A DNA stretch of 64,000 bases. Origin: Candidatus Omnitrophota bacterium. GTDB lineage: Bacteria > Omnitrophota > Gorgyraeia > Gygaellales > Profunditerraquicolaceae. The stretch spans positions 938 through 64,937 of the forward strand of contig JALOQK010000008.1 of NCBI GenBank assembly GCA_025453395.1, written 5' to 3'. Below the pieces are notes generated by a model. The model was not told the DNA's origin and searched no databases. It saw only the letters and a list, made by a program, of their open reading frames with translations. A program made the position numbers and the translations under genes. Numbering within the stretch: the stretch's first letter is position 1; every line of letters begins with the position of its first letter. Of this stretch, positions 1,744-37,407 are shown one piece after another.

Positions 1744-1762
1744 TTATATATTCCTCCTTGAT

Positions 1763-2824: not shown

Positions 2825-2834
2825 TTTTTGTATC

Positions 2835-4550: not shown

Positions 4551-4554
4551 TTTA

Positions 4555-6261: not shown

Positions 6262-6293
6262 CGGCTTTTTAGCGTCATACTTTTCAAAGTTAT

Positions 6294-6737: not shown

Positions 6738-6740
6738 AAT

Positions 6741-13311: not shown

Positions 13312-14078
13312 TGCGCAACCACCATTACTTCCTCTGTGTTTGCTAAATCTGAAAAGGGTTTGACAATTGCGTATTTACTTAAGCCTGAGAATTCCTCGCC
13401 TACATAAGTTACCGTGCCAATCATTAAACCTTTAGGGCAGCCTGAGGTTAGCCCGGAGGTAACTATCACATCAGAAACCTGGATGTCCGCATCGCGCGGC
13501 AGATACTTCATATTTAAGCAATTTCCTAACCCGCCACAGATCAAACCTTCCTGACGGCTGCGCATAACTAAAGCAGAAATACTTAAACTAGGATCACTAA
13601 TAAGAAGGACTTTGCTTGTAAAATTACCAGTCTCAACCACCCTGCCCAACAGCCCCTTATAAGACAAAACCGTCATTCCTTTATTGATGCCGCTTGCTTT
13701 TCCTTTATTAATAATAAGGCTTGCTGACCAGTTATCCGGGGAATGCGCGATTACACCCGCCACGCGCACCTTAAATGAAGATTGATCTTTCAGGGAAAGA
13801 AGCTCTCTTAAGCGGGAATTTTCCGCGTCTATTTCATCTATCTTATTTAACATCTGCTTCAGAAGCCCGTTCTCTTCTTCTAATTTAATATTATTTTTAT
13901 AATTACGGTGATAGAAAATAGCGGCCTTTGTTTCATCGGCAAGAAAATTAAACAACGATAACGGCAGGTGTGAAATGTCTAAAGCAATGGGTTTAAGATA
14001 GGAAACGGTTAGAGAACAAACTAAAGCAAAGCCGGCTACTACGAAAGTAAGGGTTAGATTTTTACTGGGTTTAAACAC
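13308..14078 (-). CDS. mreC: Rod shape-determining protein MreC
   Basis: 256 aa. N-terminal TM, coiled coil, C-terminal beta domain. Follows mreB. Confidence 0.85.
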   Translation of the reverse strand: MFKPSKNLTLTFVVAGFALVCSLTVSYLKPIALDISHLPLSLFNFLADETKAAIFYHRNYKNNIKLEEENGLLKQMLNKIDEIDAENSRLRELLSLKDQSSFKVRVAGVIAHSPDNWSASLIINKGKASGINKGMTVLSYKGLLGRVVETGNFTSKVLLISDPSLSISALVMRSRQEGLICGGLGNCLNMKYLPRDADIQVSDVIVTSGLTSGCPKGLMIGTVTYVGEEFSGLSKYAIVKPFSDLANTEEVMVVAQ

Positions 14079-14080
14079 AT

Positions 14081-15154
14081 TTAAGAATGCATCTCAGACT
14101 TTATCGGAACGGTAACTCTCTTGAGGTATTTTATTTCATTAAGCACTTTGCCTGTTCCGTTTGCTACCGCGGTAAGAGGGTCATCGGCAACATGCACCGG
14201 CAGGCCTGTCTCTTCAGAAATTAATTTATCCAAACCTCTTAATAGAGAACCGCCGCCCGCCATCATAATCCCATGCTCAATAAGGTCCGCTGACAATTCC
14301 GGAGGAGTCCTCTCAAGAGAGATCTTAGCAGATTCCACGATTGCCCTTAAGGGCTCTTGCAACGCCTCTCTTATTTCTTCAGAAGTAATGGTGACGGTTT
14401 TAGGCAGGCCCGCGATTAAATCTCTGCCTTTAACCTCAAGGCTCATTTCCTCTTCTAAAGGATAGGCAGAGCCTATTTTTATTTTTATATCTTCAGCAGT
14501 ACGCTCGCCGATCATTAAATTGTAAGTCTTTTTAAGATATTCAATGACCGCCTGATCCATTTCATCTCCGCCAATGCGTATAGAACGGGCAAAGACAATC
14601 CCCGCCAAAGAAATAACCGCGATCTCAGTTGTGCCGCCTCCTATATCTATGATCATATTGCCAATCGGGTCCTGAATCGGCAATCCCACCCCAATAGCCG
14701 CGGCCACAGGCTCTTCAATTAAAAATACTTCCCTGGCGCCAGCGCGCTCAGCTGAATCCTTAACCGCGCGTTTTTCCACTTCCGTAATGCCCGATGGGAT
14801 GGCAATAACAATTCTGGGCCTGACTAAAACCCTGCGATGATGCACCTTCTTAATAAAATACCGCAGCATCGCTTCGGTAATTTCAAAATCCGCAATAACC
14901 CCGTCTTTCATAGGGCGAATGGCGATAATATTGCCCGGGGTCCGGCCTAACATGCGCTTTGCTTCATCCCCTACAGCTAAAACATGGGAAGTCCCGCGCT
15001 CTATAGCTACTACTGAAGGCTCACACAAAACTACGCCTTCTCCTTTAACATAAACCAAAGTAGAGGCGGTGCCTAAGTCTATCCCCATGTCATTAGAGAA
15101 TAAACCTAATATATAATTTATTGTTTTCTTCAGTATCTCAGGGATTTGCGCCAT
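14081..15154 (-). CDS. mreB: Actin-like rod shape-determining protein MreB
   Basis: 357 aa. [18 protein letters not shown] phosphate-1 motif and MreB-type adenosine motif ([15 protein letters not shown]). Confidence 0.95.
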
Positions 15155-15198
15155 AGCAAGGATTTTAACAGAGTTTCAAAGTGCTGTCAAACAAAAAG

Positions 15199-16551
15199 TT
15201 AGATTAAAATAGCCTTTAAAGTGCTTAGAAAATCCGGAAAAGACTTATCAATGCAGCTGACATCATCTAAAATACTCTCATCCCGGGCTGCTAAGGCGGC
15301 AATAATCAGGCTCATGGCAGTCCGATGGTCATTAAAACTTCTTAAGATAGCCGCGTAAAGCTCTGATGGAGCGTTAATAATAACATCTTCCCCGTATTTG
15401 GAAGGCACAACCTTAATATCTACGCCCATACGGGCCAAATTGCTGCGCATAGACTCTATCCTGTCGGTTTCTTTGAAGCGCAACTCCCCTACCCCGTGAA
15501 AAACACTTTTGCCTTTGGCAAGACTTGCAGCTACCATTAATATAGGAAGTTCATCAATTAAAGACGGCACCTGTTTCGCGGATATATTCACGCCGCTTAA
15601 ACGGCTCGTGCTTACAAAGATATCGCCTGCCGGCTCAAAACGGGAAAATTTGTTATTATATTTTTTAATCCTGATCTTACCGCCCATTCTTTTAAGCACC
15701 CTTAAGAAACCAACGCGCGAAGGATTAAGGCTGACATTTTTGATAATCAAAGATGAATTCCTGAAAACAGCTGCTGCCACAATAAAGAAACTCGCCGAAG
15801 AAATATCCCCCGGAATAGTAATGGCTCCCGGAGAAACAAGCTTATCCAGAGCCTCTACAGAAACACTGTTTTTCTTAATTTCAACAGGCGCGCCAAAAAG
15901 TTTAAGCATACGCTCGGTGTGGTCACGCGTTTTAACAGACTCGATAACTGCTGTTTTTCCTTTTGCGCAAAGCCCTGCCAAAAGTACCGCTGACTTTACC
16001 TGAGCTGAGGCAACCGGCATTTTGTAATTAATAGATTTAAGCCCTCCCCCTTGAATAGTTAGAGGGGCATATTCTTCGGATTTAGCGCCTTTCATTCTTA
16101 CTTTTGAGGTTATCTTAGCGCCCATTAATCTCAAAGGAAGGTTAACCCGCAGCATTGGCCGGCGGCCAAGAGACCTGCCTACCTTAATAGAGGCTCTAAA
16201 ATTACAACCTGCTAAAACCCCCAACACAAGGCGCAAGGTCGTGCCGGATTCAGCAATAAAAAGCCTGCCGCTTTGGGGTCTCTTAAGATTCTTAAGCCCT
16301 TTGCCGTGCACTGTTACTAATAACCCGGGAAATCTTTTATTATTGCTCTTACGAAAACAGATATCCACGCCTAATTTTTGCAAAACTTCTATCGTGGAAA
16401 GGCAATCCTGATTGGCGGGAAAATTACTGATCACAACTTTGCTACTTGATAAAGCGCTTATTATAGCGCTTCTATGGGCAATGGACTTATCACCTGAGAA
16501 ACAAATCCTGCCTCTTAACCCTGCAGCCGGCCGAATTAAGAAAAAACACAT
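15199..16551 (-). CDS. aroA: 3-phosphoshikimate 1-carboxyvinyltransferase (EPSP synthase)
   Basis: 450 aa. SGDKSIAHRSAIISAL near the N-terminus and NDHRTAMSLIIAALA near the C-terminus are EPSPS signatures. Confidence 0.85.
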   Translation of the reverse strand: MCFFLIRPAAGLRGRICFSGDKSIAHRSAIISALSSSKVVISNFPANQDCLSTIEVLQKLGVDICFRKSNNKRFPGLLVTVHGKGLKNLKRPQSGRLFIAESGTTLRLVLGVLAGCNFRASIKVGRSLGRRPMLRVNLPLRLMGAKITSKVRMKGAKSEEYAPLTIQGGGLKSINYKMPVASAQVKSAVLLAGLCAKGKTAVIESVKTRDHTERMLKLFGAPVEIKKNSVSVEALDKLVSPGAITIPGDISSASFFIVAAAVFRNSSLIIKNVSLNPSRVGFLRVLKRMGGKIRIKKYNNKFSRFEPAGDIFVSTSRLSGVNISAKQVPSLIDELPILMVAASLAKGKSVFHGVGELRFKETDRIESMRSNLARMGVDIKVVPSKYGEDVIINAPSELYAAILRSFNDHRTAMSLIIAALAARDESILDDVSCIDKSFPDFLSTLKAILI

Positions 16552-17607
16552 TTATTTTTTTATGACCTTATCACCCTCTTGGACTACTTCTTTTAATCCT
16601 GCGGAAGCAAAACCTGCCGCGGACATAGAATCATGCACTTTTTCTACGTTAACTTCTCCCAAAAGCTTATTGTTGCGGGAAACCTGAAAAGTGTCCCCGG
16701 CTTTCACGCCGTCTTTTTCGCCGATATTCAACACCACAAAATCATACTCACGGTTTACTACCGCGATGCTGCCTTCGGGATTAAGCAAGGCCTGCCGGGC
16801 AAGCTCTTTTGCTTTTTGCGCCTCTTTTGCAGCCTGGGCTTTCGCTTCAACCTCTTGCTGATTATCATACTTCTTGGTTGTGCGCTGCATCTCTTTGCGC
16901 ATCTTCTCTTCATTCTTAAGTTTTAACTCGTCTTGTTTTTTCTGGGCAAGCTGCTGGTCTTTCTTTATTTTCTCTTCCAGCTTAAGCTTTGCCTCTTGGG
17001 CTTTCTGTTTTTCCCTGGCTTCCCTGGCTTCTTCTTTTGTGTTTTTCTTGACAGAAACTGCTTGCGGCTTATCTTCAGGGGAAACAACGATAGTGCCTAA
17101 CTGCACGCCTTTAAATTTTTCTTCCAACTGGCGGGATTTTTCTTCCAAGTCTTTAATTTTTACCTCTAAATCTATTTTCTTATTTTCCAGTTCCGCCAAA
17201 CGGGCTTGGATGGTTTTATTTTCTTCCTGCGCGCGGGAAAGCTGTTTGGCCAAATCATCTTTAGAGACAACCTGCTTATTCAGCTCTGCCTTTACTACGC
17301 CAATCTGATCCATGGCATCTTGCTTTGCCGCTTTCTCATTTTCCAATTCAGTATTTAAAGCAGAAACTTTTTTCTCCGTGGAGCTTAATTTATCCTCTAG
17401 GCTGAAGATCGTTTTCTTTGAATCTTCTAATTTCATTTTGGTCAGCTTCTGCTCAGCCCTGACATCTTCAAGCTGTTGCTGGATTTGGGCCTTAGCTAAT
17501 TTTTCCTGATTAAGAAGATAATATAGGCCGCCTGATAAAGCCAAAGATATAATGATAAGAAGTGTTAATATGATAATCGCGACTTTACCTTTTTTATTCA
17601 TGGCCAT
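16552..17607 (-). CDS. Membrane-anchored coiled-coil protein with C-terminal beta-rich domain (unknown function)
   Basis: 351 aa. One N-terminal TM (VAIIILTLLIIISLALSGGLYYLL), about 230 aa of K/E/Q-rich heptad coiled coil, then a C-terminal domain YDFVVLNIGEKDGVKAGDTFQV. Confidence 0.6.
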   Translation of the reverse strand: MAMNKKGKVAIIILTLLIIISLALSGGLYYLLNQEKLAKAQIQQQLEDVRAEQKLTKMKLEDSKKTIFSLEDKLSSTEKKVSALNTELENEKAAKQDAMDQIGVVKAELNKQVVSKDDLAKQLSRAQEENKTIQARLAELENKKIDLEVKIKDLEEKSRQLEEKFKGVQLGTIVVSPEDKPQAVSVKKNTKEEAREAREKQKAQEAKLKLEEKIKKDQQLAQKKQDELKLKNEEKMRKEMQRTTKKYDNQQEVEAKAQAAKEAQKAKELARQALLNPEGSIAVVNREYDFVVLNIGEKDGVKAGDTFQVSRNNKLLGEVNVEKVHDSMSAAGFASAGLKEVVQEGDKVIKK

Positions 17608-24008: not shown

Positions 24009-24830
24009 CTAGGCAGCTAATTCTTTAGCCCTTTTAATAGACGCCATGATCGCGTCTTTTAATGTCCCGCCAGAATTAAGCACATCTAAGCCTGCCTGGG
24101 TTGTCCCGCCTTTAGATGCCACCTGCTGACGCAGCCCTACAGGATCCGCGCCATTCTCAAGCATTTTGTCTGCCCCGCGCAAAGTAATCAAAGACATAAA
24201 ATGTGCCTGATCAGGGCTGAACCCTAAAGACCTTGCCGCATCCTCAAGCTCGGCGGTAAAATTTTCCATAAAACCAGACCAGTTATTTTTATAAGCTTCC
24301 GGGTTATTGGCTACCGCGTTAAAAAACCACCCCGGCCCACTGCCGGAAATCGCGGTAGCTTCATCCATTTTCGCTTCGTCAATAGCCATAACTTCTCCCA
24401 TATACTCAAATACATCTTGCGCGAAATCAAAATCTTCAAGGCTGGCGTATTTACCAGAGCACAAGCAAGTCATCCCATAACCAATACGAGCAGGCATATT
24501 TGGCATAACCCTAACCACCCTAACCACCCCTAAAAGGTTTTCTATATAAGAAGTGCCCAGGCCGGCTGCGATAGAAATAAAAAGTTTATCCAGAATATGC
24601 GGGTACTTTTTTATTTGGCCTAAAAGTTCTGCGAAATCCTGCGGTTTCACCGCCAAAATTATCGCGTCCGCTTTCTCCAGTAATTCCTGGATAGAACCTA
24701 CCGCTTGGATATCTTCAACAGAAGATACCCTAGCCTTATCCTTTTCATAGGCAAAAACCGTATAAGTATTTTTTATCTTTGAGGCGATTGCCTGGCCCAT
24801 GTTGCCTAAACCGATTATCCCTATTTTCAT
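24009..24830 (-). CDS. proC: Pyrroline-5-carboxylate reductase
   Basis: 273 aa. N-terminal NADP Rossmann motif IGIIGLGNMGQAIA. ProC C-terminal dimerisation domain. Confidence 0.9.
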   Translation of the reverse strand: MKIGIIGLGNMGQAIASKIKNTYTVFAYEKDKARVSSVEDIQAVGSIQELLEKADAIILAVKPQDFAELLGQIKKYPHILDKLFISIAAGLGTSYIENLLGVVRVVRVMPNMPARIGYGMTCLCSGKYASLEDFDFAQDVFEYMGEVMAIDEAKMDEATAISGSGPGWFFNAVANNPEAYKNNWSGFMENFTAELEDAARSLGFSPDQAHFMSLITLRGADKMLENGADPVGLRQQVASKGGTTQAGLDVLNSGGTLKDAIMASIKRAKELAA

Positions 24831-24836
24831 TTTATC

Positions 24837-25526
24837 TTACCTTTCAAATATCGCTCTGCCTAATCTTATTATTGTGGCGGCTTCTTCAATAGCAATTTCA
24901 AAATCATCGCTCATGCCCATGGAAAGCTGTAAGCTATAAGCTGTAAGCTTTAAGCTGTAAATCTTATCCCTTAATTCCCTAAGCTGGCGAAAATAGGGAC
25001 GCGCTTCTTCGGGCGCACTAACTAAAGGGGCGATGGTCATTAAACCTTTTAATTTTATATTTTTTAAAGAAGCGATCTGTTTTATAACCAAAACCGCGTC
25101 ATCAGGACTTAAACCAAATTTTGTTTCTTCTGGAGAAGTCTTTATCTGTAGTAATATCTGCTGTACTTTATTGATCTTGGCAGCCTGCCTATCGATTTCC
25201 TCTGCCAGGCGCAGGCTATCTACAGAATGAATCAAATCAAAGATCCTAACCGCATCTTTTACTTTATTAGTCTGCAAGTGGCCGATCATATGCCATTTAA
25301 TGGCAAATGGCAAATGGCAAATGGCAGACAGCTGATTAAATTTCAAAACAGCTTCTTGGACTTTATTCTCGCCGATATCAGATATGCCCTGTTGTAAAAC
25401 CTCTTGTATTTCTTGGGCGCTTCTGCCCTTGGCTACCGCAACAATAGTTATTTCAGAAGGGTCGCGGTTTGCTTTAAGGCAGGCCTGACCGACACGAAAA
25501 CTAACATCAGCCAATCCATTATACAT
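24837..25526 (-). CDS. yggS: YggS/YlmE-family PLP homeostasis protein
   Basis: 229 aa. HMIGHLQTNK and LSMGMSDDF signatures. Carries two in-frame heptamer-repeat insertions. Confidence 0.85.
   Translation of the reverse strand: MYNGLADVSFRVGQACLKANRDPSEITIVAVAKGRSAQEIQEVLQQGISDIGENKVQEAVLKFNQLSAICHLPFAIKWHMIGHLQTNKVKDAVRIFDLIHSVDSLRLAEEIDRQAAKINKVQQILLQIKTSPEETKFGLSPDDAVLVIKQIASLKNIKLKGLMTIAPLVSAPEEARPYFRQLRELRDKIYSLKLTAYSLQLSMGMSDDFEIAIEEAATIIRLGRAIFER
24924..24960. repeat. Heptamer tandem array (AAGCTNT)x5 inside the yggS coding sequence
   Basis: aagctgt aagctat aagctgt aagcttt aagctgt. Encodes YSLKLTAYSLQ just before the LSMGMS motif. Confidence 0.9.
25299..25326. repeat. Heptamer tandem array (AATGGCA)x4 inside the yggS coding sequence
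   Basis: Four perfect copies. Encodes the atypical insert HLPFAIKW immediately before the conserved HMIGHLQTNK. Confidence 0.9.
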
Positions 25527-25547
25527 AAAAACCCCTGAGGCACAATC

Positions 25548-26804
25548 TTAAAAATACTCCAGGTACAAAGCCTTGGCTTGATCAACTAACCTCTGTAATG
25601 GTTTGCGGCTAGCGTCATGAGGAAAAATAAACCCGGGCAATTTATCGTTTTCCAAAACCTCAACTAAAATGCCAAGGCAGGTAAGATACCCCAAATATTT
25701 CATCCCGGAAAGTTTAGGGTGGTTGATCAATGAAGAAACTCTCTGGGAGCTGACACGGGCAAGCTGCACCGGAAAAGAAAAAACAGACTCTGCTTTCTCC
25801 AAGAAACCTTCCTGTAAAACTGTGCCTCCGTATAAAACAAAATTAGTCACTTGGTTACTATTAAAATTAACAAAGGCATTTTTCTTGATTTCTTCAAGCA
25901 AACACTTTGCGCTATTGGTCACAACATCAACGATAAGCTTATGGCTTATCGGCTTATAGATATTATCCCTTTTGATTAAGATTTCTTTATCTACTGCAGG
26001 CGAAGCTGCCAAATAAATACTGCCGTATGTTTTCTTTACTTCTTCAGCCAAAGAATAAGGAATTCCTATTTCTTTAGAAATGGCCAGCGTAATATCATCT
26101 CCTCCGATGGGCAAATTGTGCACTTCTTTTAACATGCCATTTTCTAAGATAACAAGCTGCGTTATGTCGCTTCCAATATCGCAGAAAATACTTAAACCCT
26201 GCTTCATTTTCTCTTCAAAAAGAAGCTTGCTGGTAATCATCCCTGAATAAAATACCTCTTTTAAGTCAAGCCCCGCCTGACTTATAGCGCCAGTTAAATT
26301 CTGAAGGCAAGAAAGGCGCGCGCAAATAAGGTACAAATCTACCTGCAAACGGTGGCTGTATAGGCCTATTGGGTTGACAATATCTGCTTTATTATCAATA
26401 GCGTAACCAAAAGGCACCTCTGCAATAATCTCATCTTCCATGTTAGATCCCAAAATCCGCGCCTGAAGATTGGCTTTTTCTACATCAAAAGAAGTAATTA
26501 CCTTATTGCCTCTTTCCGCCAAAGGGATGATCGCATGGCTATGACGGGCGCTTATATCCTCACCGGCGATATTAGCATAAACATATTTTATCTGAATGCC
26601 GGAATTATTTCTAATCTTCTTGAATAAACTGCCTAAGGCTTTTACCAATTCTATTGAATCAACAACCGACCCTCTTCTTAGGCCGCAGGAAGGGATACTT
26701 TCAAAGAAAACCTCAGCAATCTTGCCTTGGGCAAGCCTTGCTACAGCCACAGATATCTTGCTTGATCCTATATCTAACGCGCAGATACTACGTTTACTGA
26801 ACAT
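25548..26804 (-). CDS. ftsA: Cell division protein FtsA
   Basis: 418 aa actin-fold. ALDIGSSKI phosphate-1 motif. Position downstream of ftsQ at the end of the dcw cluster. C-terminal extension. Confidence 0.9.
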   Translation of the reverse strand: MFSKRSICALDIGSSKISVAVARLAQGKIAEVFFESIPSCGLRRGSVVDSIELVKALGSLFKKIRNNSGIQIKYVYANIAGEDISARHSHAIIPLAERGNKVITSFDVEKANLQARILGSNMEDEIIAEVPFGYAIDNKADIVNPIGLYSHRLQVDLYLICARLSCLQNLTGAISQAGLDLKEVFYSGMITSKLLFEEKMKQGLSIFCDIGSDITQLVILENGMLKEVHNLPIGGDDITLAISKEIGIPYSLAEEVKKTYGSIYLAASPAVDKEILIKRDNIYKPISHKLIVDVVTNSAKCLLEEIKKNAFVNFNSNQVTNFVLYGGTVLQEGFLEKAESVFSFPVQLARVSSQRVSSLINHPKLSGMKYLGYLTCLGILVEVLENDKLPGFIFPHDASRKPLQRLVDQAKALYLEYF

Positions 26805-26821
26805 GTGATCCTTATCCTTTT

Positions 26822-27583
26822 TTAGTCAGTCTCATAGAATTTGATTGCCGGCTCCTTAAAACGTAAATCCACATACTTGATATTTATATTACTTTTTGAC
26901 GACTGATTAAGCAGGTTTCCCAAAAGGCTTATTTTTTCTTTTAAGTCTGCCAGGTCAAACCTCACTTCTATTCCCCTGCCAAAAGGCAATGGATAGATCA
27001 TGCAAGAAAAACCTTCCGGCGGGCTTGCGTCTATTTCCCGCAAGGCATAGCCCTTAAGGCTTTTCTTTTCCCTAAAAGCTGTGGCTATTTCTATGGCCAA
27101 TTTTAATTCACGCACCTGGTATTTCTTGCCTGACTGGGCGCCGAATATCTTTGTATCAAGCCCGGTGATTACCGGCATTCCGGTAACGGGAGAATTTTCT
27201 TCGCAAAGAAATAATACCCCTTCTTCATCGGTATAAAAATACCGGTATAATTTCACAAAGGCCACGGGAGACCTTTTCAAAAAATCAACCCATAAGATAC
27301 CGGGCAATAAACGGGTAATCCTGATCTTGCTGTAACCGGAATACCTATTCTCAAGTTGAAGCGACAAAGCCCGCAGATCGACTGAGAAGATATTGCGCCC
27401 CTTCAAATAAGAAAGGTTGAATTCATTATTTTTAGACGCTACCTCTTGGATTATGAAATATTCCGATTGCCTTAAGAACATGGAGATGCCGGATACGCAA
27501 GAAGCAACGCCTAAAACAAGAATTATAAGTATAACCCCTATAGCAAAGAATTCTTTGTTTTTCTTAAAGGCTTTGGCAGACAT
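26822..27583 (-). CDS. ftsQ: Cell division protein FtsQ/DivIB
   Basis: 253 aa. Single N-terminal TM, POTRA-like region. Position between ddl and ftsA. Confidence 0.7.
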   Translation of the reverse strand: MSAKAFKKNKEFFAIGVILIILVLGVASCVSGISMFLRQSEYFIIQEVASKNNEFNLSYLKGRNIFSVDLRALSLQLENRYSGYSKIRITRLLPGILWVDFLKRSPVAFVKLYRYFYTDEEGVLFLCEENSPVTGMPVITGLDTKIFGAQSGKKYQVRELKLAIEIATAFREKKSLKGYALREIDASPPEGFSCMIYPLPFGRGIEVRFDLADLKEKISLLGNLLNQSSKSNINIKYVDLRFKEPAIKFYETD

Positions 27584-28520
27584 TTCTCTTGTAAGCTAAT
27601 TCAATAAGCCTAAGGCATAGCTGGCTAAAATCAACTCCGATAAACTTCGCCGCTTTGGGAAGAAGGCTGGTGGAGGTCATCCCGGGTATAGCGTTAACTT
27701 CTAAAATATACGGGATATTATCCCCTCCAAGCATCATATCCACCCGCGAACAACCAAAACACCCTAAAAGCCTATGCGCTTTTACCGCCTGTTCTTGCGC
27801 CTTCCAAAAAGTATTTTCATCAAGTAAAGCGGGGATTATATACTGGGTTGTTGAAGATTTATATTTTGATTCATAATCAAAGATCTCGCCCTGATATTTA
27901 ATCTCAATCACCGGAAGCGGTTTATCGTCTAATATCCCCACAGTAAGCTCTCTGCCCTGGATAAACTCTTCCAAAACAACCCGATTATCTACTGCAAAAG
28001 CGCGCTCTATGGAAGAAATCAAATCCTGGGGAAAAGAAACCACAGACAAGCCAATACTTGAACCTGCGCACGCAGGTTTTACTACAAGAGGATATTTCAG
28101 CTCTTTATATTTCAACTTATCCCTATCAAAGGAATCTCTATCTATAATAAGATAAGCCTTGGGCATAAAAATCCCTTCCTCTTCAAAAATCTTGCGAGAC
28201 GCTATTTTATCCATTGCCAGGCGGCTGGCTGGCACGCCTGATCCAGTGTAAGGCAAAGATAGGCTTTCTAAAACTTCCTGTATCCCCCCGTCTTCGCCAA
28301 AACTTCCATGAAGCGCGATAAAGGCGCAATCCAAACTGTGCTTCTTGAGGATTTCCGCGTTCTGGGTTTTATCATCGCTTTTAATATCAATGGCAACCAC
28401 ATCAAGATTCAGGCATTTTAAATGCTCATAAACAGCCATCCCTGATTTAAACGAAACCTCCCTTTCAGTAGAAGGCCCGCCCATCAATACCCCAATTCTT
28501 CCTATTTTTTCTATTTCCAT
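27564..28520 (-). CDS. ddl: D-alanine--D-alanine ligase
   Basis: 318 aa ATP-grasp. N-terminus IGVLMGGPSTEREVSFKSG and C-terminal EVNAIPGMTSTSLLPKAA are Ddl signatures. Confidence 0.92.
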   Translation of the reverse strand: MEIEKIGRIGVLMGGPSTEREVSFKSGMAVYEHLKCLNLDVVAIDIKSDDKTQNAEILKKHSLDCAFIALHGSFGEDGGIQEVLESLSLPYTGSGVPASRLAMDKIASRKIFEEEGIFMPKAYLIIDRDSFDRDKLKYKELKYPLVVKPACAGSSIGLSVVSFPQDLISSIERAFAVDNRVVLEEFIQGRELTVGILDDKPLPVIEIKYQGEIFDYESKYKSSTTQYIIPALLDENTFWKAQEQAVKAHRLLGCFGCSRVDMMLGGDNIPYILEVNAIPGMTSTSLLPKAAKFIGVDFSQLCLRLIELAYKRNVCQSL

Positions 28521-29425
28521 ATTTTTATTTCTGGCTGAAGCTCTATGCCAAACTTTCTTTTGACCTTAAGGCGTGCCAAATCCATCAAGGATAAAATATC
28601 GCTTGTTTTAGCGCGACCATCATTAATAATAAAATTAGCGTGCTTTGCGCTTATATAAGCCCCGCCAATGCGCTTGCCCTTAAGGCCGCAGGCGTCAATA
28701 AGTTTACCGGCAGACTGGCTTTTGGGGTTTTTAAACACGCACCCTGCGGAAAACCCGGACACCAGCTGTTTTTTCCTCCGGTATAAACAATAATCTTTTA
28801 TCATCCGCCTGATAACTTCTTTTTTTTGCGCCTTAAATCTAAAGCGGGCACTCAAAATAATGTACTTGCCTAAATTGCTTGCTCGATAGGCAAATTTTAT
28901 TCTATCTCTTGGAATAGCTTTTATCTTCCCGGCGGCATCCATCACTGTCACAGACAAAACTATATCCTGCATCCACCGTTTTTTATAAGCTTGCCCGGCG
29001 TTGCCAACTATCGCCCCTCCCACTGTCCCGGGAATGCCAGACAAAAATTCAAAGCCTCCCAGCCCCAGAGAAACCGCGTAAGAAACAACAGCCCCCAACG
29101 GGCATCCAGCGCCTGCCTCTATAAAATTGCGCGCCTTTTTTATTTTCTTGAAAAAAGGCGCTGACAACTGAATCACTGCGCCTTTTTTCCCCTGGTCTGA
29201 AATCAAAAGGTTGCTGCCTAAACCAATAATTGAATATGATATATTATATCTTTTTAGGCACTTTAGCAATAATTTTAAATCCTCTACTGTGCAAGGCTTA
29301 ATAAAATACTCTGCTTTCCCGCCCAGCCTAAAAGTAGTATGCCTGGATAAGGGATAATTAAGTTTTATTTTTATTCTGTTTTGACAATTCTTCGGCAATC
29401 TCATCAGATATTCTGGTAATATCAC
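28511..29425 (-). CDS. murB: UDP-N-acetylenolpyruvoylglucosamine reductase
   Basis: 304 aa. FAD-binding motifs SRHTTFRLGGKAEYF and IIGLGSNLL. Overlaps murC by 68 nt, so an internal start is possible. Confidence 0.9.
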   Translation of the reverse strand: MILPEYLMRLPKNCQNRIKIKLNYPLSRHTTFRLGGKAEYFIKPCTVEDLKLLLKCLKRYNISYSIIGLGSNLLISDQGKKGAVIQLSAPFFKKIKKARNFIEAGAGCPLGAVVSYAVSLGLGGFEFLSGIPGTVGGAIVGNAGQAYKKRWMQDIVLSVTVMDAAGKIKAIPRDRIKFAYRASNLGKYIILSARFRFKAQKKEVIRRMIKDYCLYRRKKQLVSGFSAGCVFKNPKSQSAGKLIDACGLKGKRIGGAYISAKHANFIINDGRAKTSDILSLMDLARLKVKRKFGIELQPEIKIWK

Positions 29426-30740
29426 CCGCTCCCAATGTAAGAATTAGATCTTCTTTATTGAGGCCATCTATGACATGTTCTTTTATTTTATCTTTAGGCG
29501 TAAAGCACACCCGAGATCCCGGCATGGCCTTGGCTATTGCCAGGGCAAGATTTTGCGCATCCACTCCAGGAATAGGCTTTTCGCTTGCGGGGTAAATATC
29601 AGTGATGATCAATACGTCTGCCCCGGAAAAACATTTTGTAAACTCATCAAATAAACGCTGGGTGCGGCTGTAACGATGCGGCTGGAATATCACGACCATG
29701 CGCTTGTATTTAAGGTTATTTACCGCGGAAAGCGTGGCTTTTATCTCCGTAGGATGATGCGCGTAATCATCAATAAGCGCGCAACGGGAGTCTTGATATT
29801 TTACCTGGATACGCCTACCCGAACCTTTATAACCCTGAAGGGCGCTACTGATAATTGATTTATTAATCCCCAATTTCAAACCCAAGGCCACAACGCTTAA
29901 AGAATTTGAAATATTGTGCTTGCCCCCTAAAGATAATTTAAACCTGCCGATATTCTTATTCTTATAAATACAATCAAATTCTGAAGATAGTCCGTCCATC
30001 TTAATATTTGAAGCATAAATATGGTTATCTTTACCCAGGCCGAAGAATAAGAAATCTTCCGTGTATTTGGATAAAATCTGGCGCAAGTTAGAGTCGTCTC
30101 CGCAGGCAAACACACAGCCTCCAACAGCAGTTTTATCAATAAAATCAGAAAAACACCTTTTGAGATAATTAAAATCACGGTAATAATCCATATGTTCGTC
30201 GTCTAAATTCGTAATAACCGAATATAAAGGATTGTAATAAAGAAACGAACCGTCGGATTCATCCGCCTCAGCGACAAAAAATCCGCCATCCCCATGGCAG
30301 GCGTTATCCTGGATATTATTCAATATCCCGCCTATAACAACGCTTGGGCACATCTTGGCTTCCATCAAAAGGCAGGAAATAAGAGACGCGGTCGTGGTTT
30401 TCCCGTGAGCGCCTGTTACCGTAATTACTTTTTGCTCGCGCATAAGCTCTGCCAAAGCCTGGGCGCGCTTAATAACTCTGCGGGAAGATCTTCTTGCCTC
30501 CGCCAGCTCCGGATTGTCTTCTGCAATTGCTGATGAATAAACCACCAGGTCGGCATCGCCTAGATTTTCTTTGGCATGCCCAATAAAAATATCCGCCCCC
30601 TTAGAACGCAATAATGATATCAGACTAGTTTCTTTAACATCGGAGCCGCTCACGCGCGCGGCACCCCTGGTAATAAAAAGTTTGGCAATCCCGCTCATGC
30701 CGATGCCGCCGATGCCTATAAAATGAACATGCCTATTCAT
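29358..30740 (-). CDS. murC: UDP-N-acetylmuramate--L-alanine ligase
   Basis: 460 aa Mur ligase. HFIGIGGIGMSGIA N-terminal motif and P-loop GAHGKTTT. Confidence 0.92.
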   Translation of the reverse strand: MNRHVHFIGIGGIGMSGIAKLFITRGAARVSGSDVKETSLISLLRSKGADIFIGHAKENLGDADLVVYSSAIAEDNPELAEARRSSRRVIKRAQALAELMREQKVITVTGAHGKTTTASLISCLLMEAKMCPSVVIGGILNNIQDNACHGDGGFFVAEADESDGSFLYYNPLYSVITNLDDEHMDYYRDFNYLKRCFSDFIDKTAVGGCVFACGDDSNLRQILSKYTEDFLFFGLGKDNHIYASNIKMDGLSSEFDCIYKNKNIGRFKLSLGGKHNISNSLSVVALGLKLGINKSIISSALQGYKGSGRRIQVKYQDSRCALIDDYAHHPTEIKATLSAVNNLKYKRMVVIFQPHRYSRTQRLFDEFTKCFSGADVLIITDIYPASEKPIPGVDAQNLALAIAKAMPGSRVCFTPKDKIKEHVIDGLNKEDLILTLGAGDITRISDEIAEELSKQNKNKT

Positions 30741-31518
30741 TCTTGAAAGAACTCTCCCATTTATCCCCTAATGCTTTTAAACCGTTTATAGGATAGGCTG
30801 ATTTTATAGCCTGATCCATATCCTTTTTATCCCTCAAATATCTGCAGAAATAAACAAAATAATCCTTGCCGAAATTAGCGATAAGATAATCCACGATGCT
30901 GACCGACTCCATATAAAACAAATCGATTTTATCCTTATCTTCCAGCATGGACGGGTTTAAGCGGATTAACTGCGAAAATGGGATAAATTCCCCTTTGCTA
31001 TATGCCTTTTGCAGTATATAACGCAGGCCTATGTACCTTGTTTTCTGGTGATAAGAAGCCACTGCTTCATCCAGCCATACCGGCACAGCAGGGTTACCCA
31101 CTCCAACAAATTCCCGAAAGATAATATGCGCCATTTCATGGGATAATATCTGTTCAGAGAAACCTGAAGGCTTAGCATAGCTGTAGATCTCTTTTTCTTT
31201 TAGAGAGGCGTGTCCTCCCGCCCATTGCGGCTGTCCGGTCAACCTATGGTATTGTTCTTTGGTATCATATATGTATATCTTGGCGCGGTCATCCCAGAGC
31301 CAAAAGTCAAACCTCCTGAATCCTAATTCATCAGCAATAAGATTATAGTAGTTTTCCGCGCTTGACATTAGGTTATTTATAAAATCCTCCGGGGCATTCT
31401 GGTAGCAAACAATAAAATGCGTGCCTTTCTTCTCTTGCCACTTTTCATCAGCAAAAGAACTCTTAAAATAAAATAAAACAACCGCCAGGGCGATAGTGAC
31501 CGCTATGTTTATTTTCAT
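30733..31518 (-). CDS. Secreted HExxH zinc-metallopeptidase-like protein inserted between murG and murC
   Basis: 261 aa. N-terminal signal/TM (MKINIAVTIALAVVLFYF). HEMAH motif (ILSHEMAHIIF) with a downstream Glu (WLDEAV). Confidence 0.6.
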   Translation of the reverse strand: MKINIAVTIALAVVLFYFKSSFADEKWQEKKGTHFIVCYQNAPEDFINNLMSSAENYYNLIADELGFRRFDFWLWDDRAKIYIYDTKEQYHRLTGQPQWAGGHASLKEKEIYSYAKPSGFSEQILSHEMAHIIFREFVGVGNPAVPVWLDEAVASYHQKTRYIGLRYILQKAYSKGEFIPFSQLIRLNPSMLEDKDKIDLFYMESVSIVDYLIANFGKDYFVYFCRYLRDKKDMDQAIKSAYPINGLKALGDKWESSFKNE

Positions 31519-31521
31519 CTT

Positions 31522-32619
31522 TTAGGGCAAGAAAAATGAATCCGCAAGCCTGATCATATTGCCTAAAGCATCTATACTGGCCAAAGGCTGGTATGATTGG
31601 CGCATCTTTAGCAGATTTTCTTCAGAACAAACCAAGGGCTCTATTATCTGATTTAAAACTAAGGCGCTTAAATCACAATCTTGGACAATCGAACAAGCCC
31701 CGCACTGCGCGAGGACTTGGGCGTTAGCTTTTTGATGGCAGCGCGCATAAGGATATGGCACTAAAACCGCCGGAAGCTTATAGCGGATCAGCTCGCTTAT
31801 GGTCATCGCTCCGGAACGCGCAACAGAAAAACAAGAAGCGCTATACGCGTAGTGCATTTTATCAAAATAACTAAACAGCTTGTACTCTATATTTAAGCTT
31901 TTGTATTCTTCCTGAAGAAAAGCGTAATCATTGGCCCCGCAAATATGTATAACCTGAAGTTTAGCACAAAATTTACATTCTTTCAAAAAACTGATAAAGG
32001 CGCTGTTTATGCTGCTACTGCCTTGGCTTCCTCCGGAAACAAGTATGGTAAATTTACAAGCAGAGAAACCAAAATAAGACAACGCTTCTTGCTGGGGCAA
32101 AATAACCAAATCCTTACGTAAAGGGTTCCCGGTAAAGGCCACTTTACTTCTTGAAAAAGTTAAATAACCCTTTGTCCCTTCAAAAGACACTGCTATTTTA
32201 TCCGCAAAATATGACAAAAAAACAGTTGCCGCGCCCGGGACAACATTCTGCTCATGGATTAGGGTATTGGCCCTGAATAACCAGCCCCAGAAAACAAAAG
32301 CAACGCTGGTGATACTGCCGAAACCAACTACCAGGTCGGGCCTAAAATTTAAAACATCCCTTGCTGCTTCCAAAGAACTCTTAAAAGTTTTAAGAACATT
32401 CAAGAGGTTTTTTATTTTTAAGGACGGTTTCAATGAAAAAATAGCAACATATTTTACCTTTACATTAAGAAGCTCGATTTCCCGCCTGACAACGCTATTG
32501 ACAGGCAAAACCAGAAGTATTTCTGCAGCATCTTTCTTATCTTTTAAGCCTTGGATAAAAGCCAAAGCCGGAAAGATATGCCCGCCGCTTGCCCCAGAAA
32601 CAACTAGGATCTTTTTCAC
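31522..32619 (-). CDS. murG: Undecaprenyldiphospho-muramoylpentapeptide beta-N-acetylglucosaminyltransferase
   Basis: 365 aa GT28. N-terminus ILVVSGASGGHIFPALA (G-loop). Confidence 0.92.
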   Translation of the reverse strand: MKKILVVSGASGGHIFPALAFIQGLKDKKDAAEILLVLPVNSVVRREIELLNVKVKYVAIFSLKPSLKIKNLLNVLKTFKSSLEAARDVLNFRPDLVVGFGSITSVAFVFWGWLFRANTLIHEQNVVPGAATVFLSYFADKIAVSFEGTKGYLTFSRSKVAFTGNPLRKDLVILPQQEALSYFGFSACKFTILVSGGSQGSSSINSAFISFLKECKFCAKLQVIHICGANDYAFLQEEYKSLNIEYKLFSYFDKMHYAYSASCFSVARSGAMTISELIRYKLPAVLVPYPYARCHQKANAQVLAQCGACSIVQDCDLSALVLNQIIEPLVCSEENLLKMRQSYQPLASIDALGNMIRLADSFFLP

Positions 32620-33710
32620 GGATAGTCCCCTGTGCGCGCGATATTCATAATAATGCCAACGCTTACCATATCAAATATGAATGAGGACCCTCCGTAGCTT
32701 ATAAAAGGTAACGGCAGCCCCTTAGTCGGCATAACCCCACAGGAAACCCCGATATTGACTACCGCCTTAAAGGCAATCATTGAAACAAGGCCCAAAATAA
32801 GGAAATACCCGAACCTGTCCAAAGTGTTACGGGCGATTTTCACGCATTGCCAGATAAAAAGCATAAAAAGCATAATCACGCACAATGTCCCGATCAGGCC
32901 TAATTCTTCTCCGATAATTGAAAAAATAAAATCCGTGTGCGCTGCTGGAAGGTAAAAAAGCTTCTGTTTGGAATGGCCCAGGCCTTCGCCAAAAAAGCCT
33001 CCTGAGCCAATGGCCACCTGTGATTGAATAACCTGAAAACCGCTTCCTTTGGCATCCGCCCATGGATCCAAAAAAGCAAGTATCCTCGCTCTGCGGTAAG
33101 GCACGCTAAAAACCAAAAGGTATAGCGCTGGCAAGCTTAATAGAAATAAATAGACTAAATAGCTCTTTCTTACCCCGGCGACAAAAAGCATAGTAAAGAT
33201 AACAAGGCCTAAAGAAACTGTTGTCCCCAGATCAGGCTGAACCAAGATCAATAGAGCAGTCATGCCTAACGCCATGATAACCGGCATAAACCCTCTCCAA
33301 AAGGATTTAATCAAATCACCTTTTCTGGCGATAAAATCAGCGGTATAAATAATAAGCGCCAGATTTGCCAATTCCGATGGCTGAAAACTTAAGAACTTAA
33401 ACCGAAACCATCTGCGGGCGCCTGATATCTCCCTGCCAATTCCCGGAATAAGCACTAGAACAAGCAGGATCAATGAAATAACAAGAAAAGGCTTGGCAAA
33501 GCGCCTAAATTTATGATAATCCATGGCCATAGCCAGAAATGAAAGGAAAATCCCGATAATAAGAAAAGCGATATGCCGCTTAAGAAAAAACAGGCTGTCA
33601 TTCTGCTTTTCCATGGCATAGATTCCGGAAGAGCTATAGATCATTACTATCCCGACACAAATCAATATAACAGTAATTGCGAAAAGATTTATACGTAAGT
33701 TTCTAATCAT
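32616..33710 (-). CDS. ftsW: SEDS-family cell division protein FtsW
   Basis: 364 aa polytopic membrane protein of the FtsW/RodA family at the canonical dcw position between murD and murG. Confidence 0.9.
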   Translation of the reverse strand: MIRNLRINLFAITVILICVGIVMIYSSSGIYAMEKQNDSLFFLKRHIAFLIIGIFLSFLAMAMDYHKFRRFAKPFLVISLILLVLVLIPGIGREISGARRWFRFKFLSFQPSELANLALIIYTADFIARKGDLIKSFWRGFMPVIMALGMTALLILVQPDLGTTVSLGLVIFTMLFVAGVRKSYLVYLFLLSLPALYLLVFSVPYRRARILAFLDPWADAKGSGFQVIQSQVAIGSGGFFGEGLGHSKQKLFYLPAAHTDFIFSIIGEELGLIGTLCVIMLFMLFIWQCVKIARNTLDRFGYFLILGLVSMIAFKAVVNIGVSCGVMPTKGLPLPFISYGGSSFIFDMVSVGIIMNIARTGDYP

Positions 33711-33712
33711 TG

Positions 33713-34966
33713 CTATAACTTTAATACCTCTTTCTTAAAAACTTCCCCCCGCTGTTTATAGTTATCAAACATATCAAAACTGGAGCACATAGGAGACAAA
33801 AGAACATAATCGCCGCTGTTGGCATTTAAAAAAGCCTTAACCACCGCGTCACGCATAGAAGAAGCTTCTATAACCGGTATTTTCTTAAAGATACACCGGC
33901 GGATTTTGTCTTTTGCTTCTCCGATCAAAACAGCAAGCCTGACTTTCCCGGCAGCCTCTTTAAGCATTAATCCGTAATCTACTCCCTTGTCTTTTCCTCC
34001 GGCAATTAAAACAACATCTGAATTGATATTTCTTAAAGCCCAAACGCAAGATTCAACAGTAGTGGCCTTAGAGTCATTAATAAAGCTTACCCCTTTTTTC
34101 TTAGCCACAAATTCCATGCGATGCGCCAGGCCTTTAAATGCGCTGAACACTTTAAGACAAGTCTTACGCGCAATACCCAAGAGTTCTCCAACCTTGATTA
34201 CCGCCTGCTGATTAGGATTCAATTTGCCATCTGGCTCGTACCAAACAATCTCAGAAAGAGCGCTTTTGGAAACTTTCTTTAGCAGCTTGTCCTTGCTGTT
34301 AAGAACAAGATAATCTGAAGGGCCCTGATTTATGAAAATACGTTTCTTGGCCTCTAAGTATTCCCGCATATCTTTATGGCGGTCAAGATGATTGCGGTTA
34401 AAATTCAGAATAAGGGCTATTTTAGGACGAAAATTATAGCAGCTCTCCAGCTGAAAAGAACTGACTTCTAAAGAAACGAAATCTTCCGGGCGCATCTTCT
34501 TGACTAAAGACGTAAAAGGCGTGCCGATATTCCCGCAAACAAACACCCTGCGGGAACTGGCTTCTATGATCTTGCCGATCAAAGTTGTAACCGTGGTCTT
34601 GCCATTTGAACCGGTAACCGCGATGATTGAAGCATCACACAACATCCACCCTACTTCTATCTCGCTTATCGCAGGAATATTCTTTTCTTTAGCCCAAAGA
34701 ACTGGCTGGCTTACGGGGGTTACGCCCGGGGAGAGGACCAGCAGATCGCTTTTCTGAATTAAATCCTTACTGTGTTTGCCGGTTTCCACAAAAATATTTT
34801 TATCTTTTAGCTTCTTAGCTAGACAACGAACCGGTGCATCGTCCTTATTATCGGTAACGCTAACCCTAGACCCCAAATCATGAAGCAAATTCGCGCAGGA
34901 AAAACCGGAACTAGCTAAACCTACCACAGTTATTCTCTTGTCGCGGAAAAATTCAATATTTCTCAT
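33713..34966 (-). CDS. murD: UDP-N-acetylmuramoylalanine--D-glutamate ligase
   Basis: 417 aa. N-terminal Rossmann VVGLASSG. P-loop GSNGKTT. Confidence 0.92.
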   Translation of the reverse strand: MRNIEFFRDKRITVVGLASSGFSCANLLHDLGSRVSVTDNKDDAPVRCLAKKLKDKNIFVETGKHSKDLIQKSDLLVLSPGVTPVSQPVLWAKEKNIPAISEIEVGWMLCDASIIAVTGSNGKTTVTTLIGKIIEASSRRVFVCGNIGTPFTSLVKKMRPEDFVSLEVSSFQLESCYNFRPKIALILNFNRNHLDRHKDMREYLEAKKRIFINQGPSDYLVLNSKDKLLKKVSKSALSEIVWYEPDGKLNPNQQAVIKVGELLGIARKTCLKVFSAFKGLAHRMEFVAKKKGVSFINDSKATTVESCVWALRNINSDVVLIAGGKDKGVDYGLMLKEAAGKVRLAVLIGEAKDKIRRCIFKKIPVIEASSMRDAVVKAFLNANSGDYVLLSPMCSSFDMFDNYKQRGEVFKKEVLKL

Positions 34967-34967
34967 A

Positions 34968-36056
34968 TTACCGTATCTTTAAAGTAACGATGGTAAATAA
35001 AGCCAGAAGGCTGGCGATAATCCAAAACCGCACGATAACTTTATTTTCCTGCCATCCTGAAAAGCGAAAATGATGGTGTATCGGCGCAATCTTAAATATC
35101 CGCTTCTTGAAGAAACGGAAAGAAAATACCTGTAAGATAACTGATAGCGCTTCTACGACAAAAATCCCTCCCACTATCCCTAAAAGAAATTCTTTTTTAA
35201 TGAAAACCGCTACCGCCCCCAAACATCCGCCTAAGGCGAGGGAACCCACATCTCCCATAAAAATAGACGCCGGATAACAATTAAACCACAAAAAACCTAA
35301 ACCCGCGCCCAGGATACTGGCGCATAAAACTGTTAATTCTCCCGCCCCTCTTATATAGGGTATTAATAAGTAACTGCTGAATTTGATATTCCCGGAAACA
35401 TAACTTAAGACGCTAAAGGCAACCGCCACCATTATTACGCATCCAATAGCCAAACCATCAAGCCCGTCAGTCAGATTTACCGCGTTTGAAGTTCCGGTAA
35501 TAACCAAAACCACAAATAAAATATATAAAATTCCTAAATCAATAGAAACATCTTTTAGAAACGGTATATCTAATTTAGTACTTATCTGAGGATCAAGATA
35601 AATAAAAGCCCCCAAGATAAATCCTAAAGTTATTTGGCTGATTAGTTTCTGTGAAGCATTCATCCCCTTGGCGCGGTGTTTTATCTGCTTTAGGTAATCA
35701 TCGGCAAAACCAGTGGCCCCCAGCCAAACAATCACCAGTATCGATAAGAGTATATATTTATCGGTCATGTCAGCCCACAAAAACAAGGATATTAAAATCG
35801 CGGCAATAATGAATATTCCCCCCATGGTCGGAGTATCACGCTTAAAGCTGTGCTGTTTATCCAAATCCGCGCTATCGCCTTTGTTAATCTTCTCGGTAAG
35901 CTTATATTGTTTTAATATCTTAATCACCAATGGCCCAAAAATAAGGCTTAACAGAAAAGCGGTGATCGCTGCCATGGCCGCGCGAAAAGTGATATATTGA
36001 AATATATTCAAAAAAGGCAATATATCTCTTAAGGGATATAAAAGACTGTGTAACAT
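34968..36056 (-). CDS. mraY: Phospho-N-acetylmuramoyl-pentapeptide transferase
   Basis: 362 aa polytopic membrane protein. NAVNLTDGLDGLA catalytic motif. Confidence 0.95.
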   Translation of the reverse strand: MLHSLLYPLRDILPFLNIFQYITFRAAMAAITAFLLSLIFGPLVIKILKQYKLTEKINKGDSADLDKQHSFKRDTPTMGGIFIIAAILISLFLWADMTDKYILLSILVIVWLGATGFADDYLKQIKHRAKGMNASQKLISQITLGFILGAFIYLDPQISTKLDIPFLKDVSIDLGILYILFVVLVITGTSNAVNLTDGLDGLAIGCVIMVAVAFSVLSYVSGNIKFSSYLLIPYIRGAGELTVLCASILGAGLGFLWFNCYPASIFMGDVGSLALGGCLGAVAVFIKKEFLLGIVGGIFVVEALSVILQVFSFRFFKKRIFKIAPIHHHFRFSGWQENKVIVRFWIIASLLALFTIVTLKIR

Positions 36057-36057: not shown

Positions 36058-37407
36058 TTACGTAATTACTCCTTCCATTTTCATAGAACGTGAGCCCTTA
36101 ACTAAAATCAGATCGTGCTTATCCGGATTCACCTTATCCAAAAGAATGTTTTTTGCTTCTTGGGCGCTTTCGCATGTAAAAACAGATTGCGCGCCGTTTT
36201 TAACAGCCTGCTTTGCCGCGTATTTGGCTAATTTGCCAACGCAAATAATAACGTCACAGACACCCGCCGCAAATTCTCCGGATTCTTTATGAAAATTCTT
36301 GGAGTTCTCCCCCAGCTCCAACATATCTGCCATGACCAGTATCCTTCTTTTCTTTACCGGATAATCCTTCAGGGCCTGCAAAGCCATCTTTAAAGAAAGC
36401 GGATTGCAGTTATAAGTATCATCAATAAATTTTAGGCTCCCCTTTTTAATTATGCTTAATCTGCCTTGCGGAAATTTGAAATTTCTTAATCTTGAAGCGA
36501 TCTGTTTATAGCTTACTCCCAAAATCCTAGCTGTGGCCACAGAAGATAAGGCATTATACACATTATATTGCCCGCAAGTAGATAAAGCAACTCTTTGTCT
36601 GTTATTCACCACAAACATGGCCTTTTCTTTAAAAAGCCTGACAGAAGAAGCCTGAAAGTCGCTTTTTTTATTTATCCCGAAACCTATCGAGATGGGGCTT
36701 TTAACGCCTGATGCTTTACGGTATAAAAAAGGATCGTCATAGTTGAATACCGCTATACCCTTGGGCCTTAGGTTACGGATAAGGCTATATTTCTCAGAAA
36801 ATACTCCTTGGAGGTCCTTTAAATACTCCAAATGCGAACAGCCAATATTAGTAATCACTCCGATATCAGGGGAAGCGATCTGGGCTAAATATTCAATCTC
36901 GCCAAAATGGTTAGTGCCTAATTCTAAAACCACCACTTGGTGTTTTCCTGAAAGCTCAAGAAGCGTCATGGGCAGACCAATATGATTATTTTTCGTGCCC
37001 TTGGTTTTAAGCACCTTAAACGCGCCCGATAAAACCCATGAGAGCATATCCTTGGTTGTAGTCTTTCCATTACTGCCGGTGACAGCGATCACAACAGGAT
37101 TGAATTTATTCCTTACATAAGAAGCCAGATAACCTAAAACCTTAAGGGTGTCTTTCCCGACTAAGAAAGTTACGCTCTTAGGCACTTGAGCGGATAAATC
37201 CTTCTGGGCGATAATACACCCGGCGCCATTTTTAACTGCTTGCTTTATAAAATCATGCCCATCCAGACGCTTGCCCTTTATGGCCACAAAAATATCGCCG
37301 GCAGCAACCTGGCGGGAATCAATGACAACTTTCCTAAAGGAATTTTTGCTGCCTGCCTGCGCCAAAGAAATGCGGCCATGGATAATTAATTCTTTTATCT
37401 TAAACAT
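36058..37407 (-). CDS. murF: UDP-MurNAc-tripeptide--D-alanyl-D-alanine ligase
   Basis: 449 aa Mur ligase. P-loop AVTGSNGKTTTKDML. Confidence 0.9.
   Translation of the reverse strand: MFKIKELIIHGRISLAQAGSKNSFRKVVIDSRQVAAGDIFVAIKGKRLDGHDFIKQAVKNGAGCIIAQKDLSAQVPKSVTFLVGKDTLKVLGYLASYVRNKFNPVVIAVTGSNGKTTTKDMLSWVLSGAFKVLKTKGTKNNHIGLPMTLLELSGKHQVVVLELGTNHFGEIEYLAQIASPDIGVITNIGCSHLEYLKDLQGVFSEKYSLIRNLRPKGIAVFNYDDPFLYRKASGVKSPISIGFGINKKSDFQASSVRLFKEKAMFVVNNRQRVALSTCGQYNVYNALSSVATARILGVSYKQIASRLRNFKFPQGRLSIIKKGSLKFIDDTYNCNPLSLKMALQALKDYPVKKRRILVMADMLELGENSKNFHKESGEFAAGVCDVIICVGKLAKYAAKQAVKNGAQSVFTCESAQEAKNILLDKVNPDKHDLILVKGSRSMKMEGVIT

Follow-up and report, generated by a model that had tools for sequence, protein, structure and literature searches.

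The dcw cluster of cell-wall and division genes carried by a 64,000-nt stretch of a Candidatus Omnitrophota metagenome-assembled genome (MAG) contig, hereafter the window, is canonical except that the final gene is lacking: it runs as far as ftsA and stops there, without the ftsZ gene whose product is nearly universal in bacteria. It is very probable that the Omnitrophota lost ftsZ as a whole phylum, with their other machinery for division and wall synthesis remaining intact and FtsA being kept as a working protein. Given such a loss by the phylum as a whole, this genome, too, most probably lacks ftsZ and has not moved it to another place.

On a 65,475-bp contig of Joint Genome Institute (JGI) metagenome 3300037461, the window takes up positions 966-64965; it has a G+C content of 42%. 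Almost all of its genes are on the minus strand, as are all of the window features for which coordinates are given below. Its FtsA is 100% identical to MCU0666789.1, listed by NCBI as 'MAG: cell division protein FtsA [Candidatus Omnitrophica bacterium]', and the contig is assigned to a Candidatus Omnitrophota genome. Genes were identified with Pfam and NCBIfam profiles, comparing bit scores with the cut-offs of the families.

Absence of ftsZ from the end of the dcw cluster

The profile matches reproduce the gene order given in the preliminary description of this DNA, namely mraZ-rsmH-ftsL-ftsI-murE-murF-mraY-murD-ftsW-murG-X-murC-murB-ddl-ftsQ-ftsA, and every gene is encoded by the minus strand. 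The division genes of the cluster end with ftsA (25548-26804, stop codon included), which encodes a protein of 418 aa identified through Pfam, TIGR01174 and a structure model. The expected site of ftsZ, read directly from the sequence, is occupied by a junction of 21 nt (25527-25547) between the ftsA stop codon and the ATG of yggS at 25526. Hence yggS does follow ftsA directly, as previously described, although the gap is 21 nt and not 22 nt. No terminator-like site could be found in these 21 nt, which suggests that ftsA and yggS are co-transcribed. The accompanying statement that yggS usually lies just downstream of ftsZ is not supported as a general rule: it is true of the ylmE neighbourhood in Firmicutes, Actinobacteria and Cyanobacteria, but fails for Escherichia coli.

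Homologues of FtsZ were sought by tblastn with the proteins of E. coli and Bacillus subtilis, probe sequences that were validated against the PDB (808 and 802 bits to the full-length proteins) and that both also detect archaeal FtsZ at approximately 1e-84. Neither probe identified an FtsZ homologue in the window, the sole match being a spurious one within murE (E = 0.49), and a motif scan found the tubulin signature GG[GAS]TG[STA]G to be absent from every frame. The contig bases on either side of the window (965 and 510) are too short to contain ftsZ. The earlier claim that no FtsZ-sized open reading frame (ORF) exists here is literally wrong, because many ORFs in the window are 350-450 aa in length, but the homologue itself is indeed missing.

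The same neighbourhood was studied in 83 related loci, three of them on long contigs of relatives and 80, nearly all titled Omnitrophota, from a survey that took a single genome for each GTDB species; together with two copies of the window's own contig, these make up 85 loci and 1.36 Mb of sequence around ftsA. The three long contigs have the order ftsQ-ftsA-yggS-proC-MTAP-ileS-dksA-lspA-lgt-rluD, without ftsZ, and throughout the 85 loci there was neither a match to FtsZ at E <= 1e-3 nor a tubulin signature. Downstream order was scored only in the loci with at least 1.5 kb 3' of ftsA (70 of 83), and in 57 of these yggS is the next gene, in the order ftsA-yggS-proC-MTAP-ileS. In the relatives where it is not, ftsA is followed by genes for a GlmU-like transferase, MarC, a polyprenyl synthase, a histidine kinase, UvrD or some unknown proteins, none of which is FtsZ. 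Nor were any remnants of FtsZ detected in the longer ftsA-yggS gaps, the only match comprising 12 residues (E = 3.3) within a giant ORF of one relative, L080. The check on synteny in relatives that had been suggested therefore bears out a junction lacking ftsZ that is kept across Omnitrophota species, with no ftsZ in any of the 83 loci. As no ftsZ lies near ftsA in any of these relatives, the missing ftsZ is, on this sequence comparison, an ancient trait of the entire lineage.

Two side observations concern these relatives. The giant ORF of L080 (JAHFFR010000010.1, 11356-16509) encodes 1717 aa and is an insertion that separates ftsA from yggS; the Omnitrophota are known for proteins of great length (Seymour et al. 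2023). In addition, some genomes (L007, L013, L014, L017, L047, L075 and others) have FtsA and synteny of the Omnitrophota type but are titled 'uncultured Planctomycetales bacterium', 'Candidatus Margulisiibacteriota' or 'Patescibacteria group', titles that are probably submitter mislabels.

Lack of the gene in this phylum has been recorded before. The Omnitrophota were reported to be without ftsZ by Rivas-Marin et al. (2016), and Pende et al. (2021) found FtsZ to be absent from Planctomycetes, Omnitrophica and Chlamydiae, with Planctomycetes and Chlamydiae also lacking FtsA and SepF. In the table of the latter study, Omnitrophus magneticus, RIFOXYB12_FULL_50_7 and WOR_2 SM23_29 have FtsA but no FtsZ, and among Omnitrophica FtsZ is entered only for OLB16; this sole FtsZ-positive 'Omnitrophica' genome may lie outside the phylum. 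Seymour et al. (2023) analysed 421 genomes that represent 276 species, and their supplement gives no ftsZ in Omnitrophota except for one contaminant, 89% identical to an archaeal protein. Absence at the level of the phylum is thus already known, though published in passing, and the novelty implied by the preliminary description is not borne out; as the literature already records the absence, the window reveals no new phenomenon.

Two other explanations of the missing gene can be weighed against these data. Were ftsZ present elsewhere in the genome, the locus would represent a simple rearrangement of gene order, and a number of points lean this way and so count against absence. For this particular genome, absence rests on relatives and on the literature, the sequence examined being 64 kb from a 65.5-kb contig; MAGs are incomplete; and Henriques et al. 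(2025) placed the Omnitrophota among FtsZ-bearing phyla in which they describe dcw genes as 'highly conserved', with no separate mention of ftsZ. The disagreement of that study with Seymour et al. (2023) and Pende et al. (2021) over the Omnitrophota is a minor inconsistency, and no FtsZ data for individual genomes are given in the supplementary files of that study or of a 2026 complete-genome preprint. Relocation is made very improbable by two independent surveys that lack an Omnitrophota ftsZ, save for the archaeal-like contaminant and OLB16, and by the 1.36 Mb flanking ftsA in 83 relatives, in which none was found. The likelihood that the gap is instead an artefact of assembly or binning, arising from a collapsed or chimeric join between ftsA and yggS, is negligible. 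The source is a metagenome assembly, but the Logan assembly of a different sequencing run (SRR12684589) is identical to the window over 7637 bp that include the junction, which is therefore not an assembly artefact, and a like junction is present in 57 other species-level genomes originating from many studies. The choice between 'elsewhere' and 'absent' that the preliminary description had left standing consequently resolves strongly to absent, given the conserved junction in relatives and the published surveys.

Architecture and constraint of FtsA

The FtsA of the window matches the Pfam FtsA family with 64.9 bits and SHS2_FTSA with 42.4 bits (residues 81-160), and narrowly passes the equivalog model TIGR01174 (177.0 bits, cut-off 175.85), in contrast to the MreB of the window, which reaches 539 bits. 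Its relatives constitute a large family of proteins of 415-427 aa that are 44-50% identical to it, the named members of which are annotated as Omnitrophica or Omnitrophota. A profile of 120 members of this family matches the FtsA proteins of E. coli, Vibrio, Xenorhabdus, Staphylococcus aureus and Thermotoga maritima in the PDB, with E values from 1e-41 to 2e-14. The AlphaFold2 model computed from the 120-sequence alignment has a predicted local distance difference test score (pLDDT) of 87 and a predicted template modelling score of 0.84, and the 19 best matches to it in a Foldseek search of the PDB are all FtsA, with template modelling scores of 0.72-0.85, above PilM and MreB. An earlier model, made from an alignment of 14 sequences, was discarded (pLDDT 64, subdomain 1C unfolded). 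Identification of the protein as a paralogue of PilM or MreB was also rejected, since FtsA structures and models score clearly higher.

In the model, a folded core extends to approximately residue 388 and is followed by a disordered linker (388-400) and a helix (402-417). The hydrophobic moment of this predicted membrane-targeting helix is 0.40-0.55, against 0.57 in E. coli, and the last eight residues of the protein, KEVYQEYF, are approximately 92% conserved in the family. The hallmarks of FtsA proteins are found together: an actin/HSP70-type fold in which 1C (SHS2) replaces 1B, a predicted C-terminal amphipathic helix following a linker, and a gene that closes the dcw cluster after ftsQ. The unusual C-terminal extension that had been ascribed to this protein finds no support, as its 418 aa fall within the 415-427 aa of its relatives and its core-linker-helix layout is the standard one. 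E. coli FtsA, of approximately 420 aa, is of comparable length. Taken together, profile matches and model indicate a canonical actin-like FtsA with a predicted membrane-binding C-terminal helix, which appears to be still working.

The ratio of nonsynonymous to synonymous substitution rates (dN/dS) was calculated by the Nei-Gojobori method for 20 independent species pairs. The median for ftsA is 0.065 (range 0.025-0.168), alongside 0.064 for MTAP, 0.082 for ileS, 0.128 for both ftsQ and proC, and 0.146 for yggS. Hence ftsA is as constrained as housekeeping genes, and is under strong purifying selection.

Conservation is unevenly distributed over the protein. The most conserved region in the family alignment is 1C, with a mean top-residue frequency of 0.82 and 43 of its 82 columns at least 90% conserved, whereas the means of the other folded regions are 0.66-0.74. 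Within 1C, the motif PLAERGNK (residues 94-101, approximately 26502-26525) is invariant or nearly so among 120 homologues, and may mark a lineage-specific interaction surface. Subdomain 2B, through which FtsA binds the conserved C-terminal peptide of FtsZ, has the family-conserved motifs DKEILVKK and YKPI. The site on FtsA that binds the C-terminal peptide of FtsZ has been modelled and genetically mapped to residues 234-245 and 294-304 of the E. coli protein (PMC10769210). The helix of the Omnitrophota family that aligns to 294-304 is among the least conserved parts of the core (0.57-0.60). E298, R300 and E303 of E. coli align with E, R and E in S. aureus FtsA, while the corresponding positions in the 120 family members are most often T (94), K or S (55 and 42) and L or S (43 and 41). 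This pattern fits a remodelled FtsZ-tail site in Omnitrophota FtsA, as a lead only.

Division in the absence of FtsZ

Besides FtsA, the window encodes FtsQ, an FtsL-like protein, FtsW, FtsI, FtsK, the Mur enzymes, MreBCD, RodZ, RodA and PBP2, such that every core divisome or elongasome gene looked for, other than ftsZ, was found there. It is tentatively proposed, as the most likely mechanism, that division in these bacteria is independent of FtsZ and driven by septal peptidoglycan synthesis. Membrane-bound polymers of FtsA would constitute the cytoplasmic scaffold, and the highly conserved 1C would serve FtsA in recruiting or activating FtsQ/L-FtsW/I, the septal peptidoglycan synthase; MreB, RodZ and FtsK may assist, as in the FtsZ-less Chlamydiae. 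Held a shade more loosely is the fuller form of this proposal, according to which the Omnitrophota would be the one bacterial phylum that kept FtsA after the loss of FtsZ, with FtsA now the primary cytoskeletal protein that organises septal peptidoglycan synthesis independently of FtsZ, acting via the unusually conserved 1C, and its FtsZ-tail pocket remodelled. Two considerations tell against such a role for FtsA: the conservation of 1C could simply reflect contacts within the filament, and the comparison of FtsZ-tail sites draws its canonical sample from gammaproteobacterial and S. aureus FtsA only.

Division might instead be organised chiefly by MreB, RodZ and FtsK in the manner of the Chlamydiae, leaving FtsA accessory or repurposed. 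One strand of the window encodes all of MreB (canonical, 539 bits), MreC, an MreD-like protein, RodZ, FtsK, PBP2 and RodA, and early recruitment of FtsK to the division site has been described in Chlamydia. However, Chlamydiae and Planctomycetes lost FtsA along with FtsZ, while here FtsA is under very strong purifying selection and its gene still closes the dcw cluster beside ftsQ, making this the less likely arrangement, though one that should be kept in view. Far less likely is replacement of FtsZ by a very divergent tubulin-like or non-homologous protein that works with FtsA. The conserved motifs in 2B imply that this subdomain is still constrained, and a 351-aa membrane-anchored protein with a coiled coil and an FlgT_C-like domain is present in the gene array of 39/39 relatives, but nothing ties this protein to division, no tubulin-like signature or weak similarity to FtsZ is evident in the 85 loci, and published surveys based on hidden Markov models found no such substitute.

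Other genes of the window

The dcw cluster begins with mraZ (41888-42328; Pfam MraZ, 136.7 bits) and rsmH, also termed mraW (40992-41882; Methyltransf_5, 346 bits). The next gene (40622-40972, a JGI gene call) encodes a protein of 116 aa that has no Pfam or NCBIfam match and is considered ftsL-like only from its position between rsmH and ftsI. The PBP3-type transpeptidase gene ftsI (38846-40546) has PBP_dimer and Transpeptidase domains. Pfam matches then identify murE (37395-38843), murF (36058-37407), mraY (34968-36056), murD (33713-34966), ftsW (32616-33710), murG (31522-32619), murC (29358-30740), murB (28511-29425) and ddl (27564-28520). The ftsQ gene (26822-27583; FtsQ_DivIB_C, 26.2 bits, cut-off 21) has a position that is conserved in 80 of the 83 related loci. 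The gene designated X (30733-31518), which lies inside the cluster between murG and murC, encodes a secreted-looking Peptidase_MA_2 protein (PF13485, 59.7 bits); a Peptidase_MA_2 gene occupies this slot in 40 of 64 related loci, and in the other 24 murG directly adjoins murC.

Downstream of the junction, yggS (24837-25526) encodes a protein of 229 aa in the pyridoxal phosphate-binding protein family. It has the single-domain alanine-racemase-N fold characteristic of YggS/PLPBP proteins (Ala_racemase_N, 73 bits) and scores above the TIGR00044 cut-off (205 bits, cut-off 106). It is followed by proC (24009-24830), with P5CR_dimer and F420_oxidored domains, and 3' of this by genes for an MTAP-type phosphorylase, ileS, a dksA/traR-type gene, lspA, lgt and rluD. 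Beyond rluD are a gene for a conserved coiled-coil membrane protein and the elongasome genes murA, mreB, mreC, mreD-like, pbp2 and rodA (10020-16551), all identified with Pfam; the score of MreB cited above is on NCBIfam, and that of MreD is weak (19.4 bits). Upstream of the dcw cluster are ftsK, with FtsK_4TM, FtsK_SpoIIIE and FtsK_gamma domains, and rodZ, with HTH_25 and RodZ_C domains (58892-61904); the NCBIfam matches of RodZ are below their cut-offs.

The division and shape genes therefore form a loose array on one strand (10020-61904) that is broken up by housekeeping genes: ftsK-rodZ, approximately 16 kb of housekeeping genes, the dcw cluster, the genes from yggS to rluD, and then murA-mreB-mreC-mreD-like-pbp2-rodA. 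The stretch of this array from ftsQ to murA is kept in relatives. The coiled-coil protein encoded within it (16552-17607, 351 aa) has an N-terminal membrane anchor, a coiled coil of approximately 250 aa and a C-terminal FlgT_C-like domain, which reaches 35.8 bits when scanned alone. Its gene lies between rluD and murA in 39/39 related loci, and the protein is a candidate morphogenetic factor in this FtsZ-less lineage. At the far end of the window, a cluster of type II secretion or type IV pilus genes (538-8162) comprises two T2SSE ATPases with MshEN domains, a stand-alone MshEN protein, a T2SSF platform protein, an HD-domain protein and a GAF-GGDEF diguanylate cyclase.

Comparison with known systems

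To the question of how cells divide without FtsZ, which Chlamydiae and Planctomycetes already pose, the Omnitrophota add a distinct case, in which the dcw cluster is intact and FtsA is under strong constraint but FtsZ is missing. If FtsA alone organises division in this phylum, this would reveal what FtsA is capable of without a Z-ring and would help to explain the constriction of very small cells; were FtsA the primary organiser, the lineage would constitute a natural experiment separating the functions of FtsA from those of FtsZ. The window is of value as an example that is clean and well assembled, and as a starting point for hypotheses on FtsA. The present analysis adds to the published record the constraint under which FtsA stands, the way conservation is distributed over its domains, the scale on which the junction is conserved and the failure to keep the residues at the E298, R300 and E303 positions.

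The locus resembles the canonical bacterial dcw cluster in gene content and order from mraZ to ftsA, in its confinement to one strand and in its tight packing. It differs in lacking the usual terminal gene ftsZ, with yggS-proC directly after ftsA, and in the additional Peptidase_MA_2 gene between murG and murC. Similarly, the FtsA proteins of E. coli, Vibrio, Xenorhabdus, S. aureus and T. maritima (7Q6D, 7Q6F, 7Q6G, 3WQT, 4A2A) share with that of the window their fold, 1C (SHS2), disordered linker and amphipathic helix, but are only 16-22% identical to it. The Omnitrophota protein is distinguished from the E. coli and Vibrio proteins by a loop of 1C with the invariant ERGNK and a 3-residue insertion, and from all of these structures by the lack of its usual partner, FtsZ.

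The closest parallels are the Chlamydiota and Planctomycetota of the Planctomycetes-Verrucomicrobia-Chlamydiae (PVC) group, which are likewise without FtsZ and have kept peptidoglycan synthesis genes, FtsK, FtsQ, FtsW/FtsI, MreB and RodZ. The Omnitrophota system may work partly like the chlamydial one, by analogy, but the gene set is not the same: Chlamydia has lost both FtsZ and FtsA, while in the window MreB, RodZ and FtsK are accompanied by an FtsA that is present and constrained. Both of these other phyla lost FtsA, whereas the Omnitrophota keep it under strong constraint and within an unfragmented dcw cluster. It is this retention of FtsA that sets the Omnitrophota apart from the two other FtsZ-less PVC phyla (Pende et al. 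2021).

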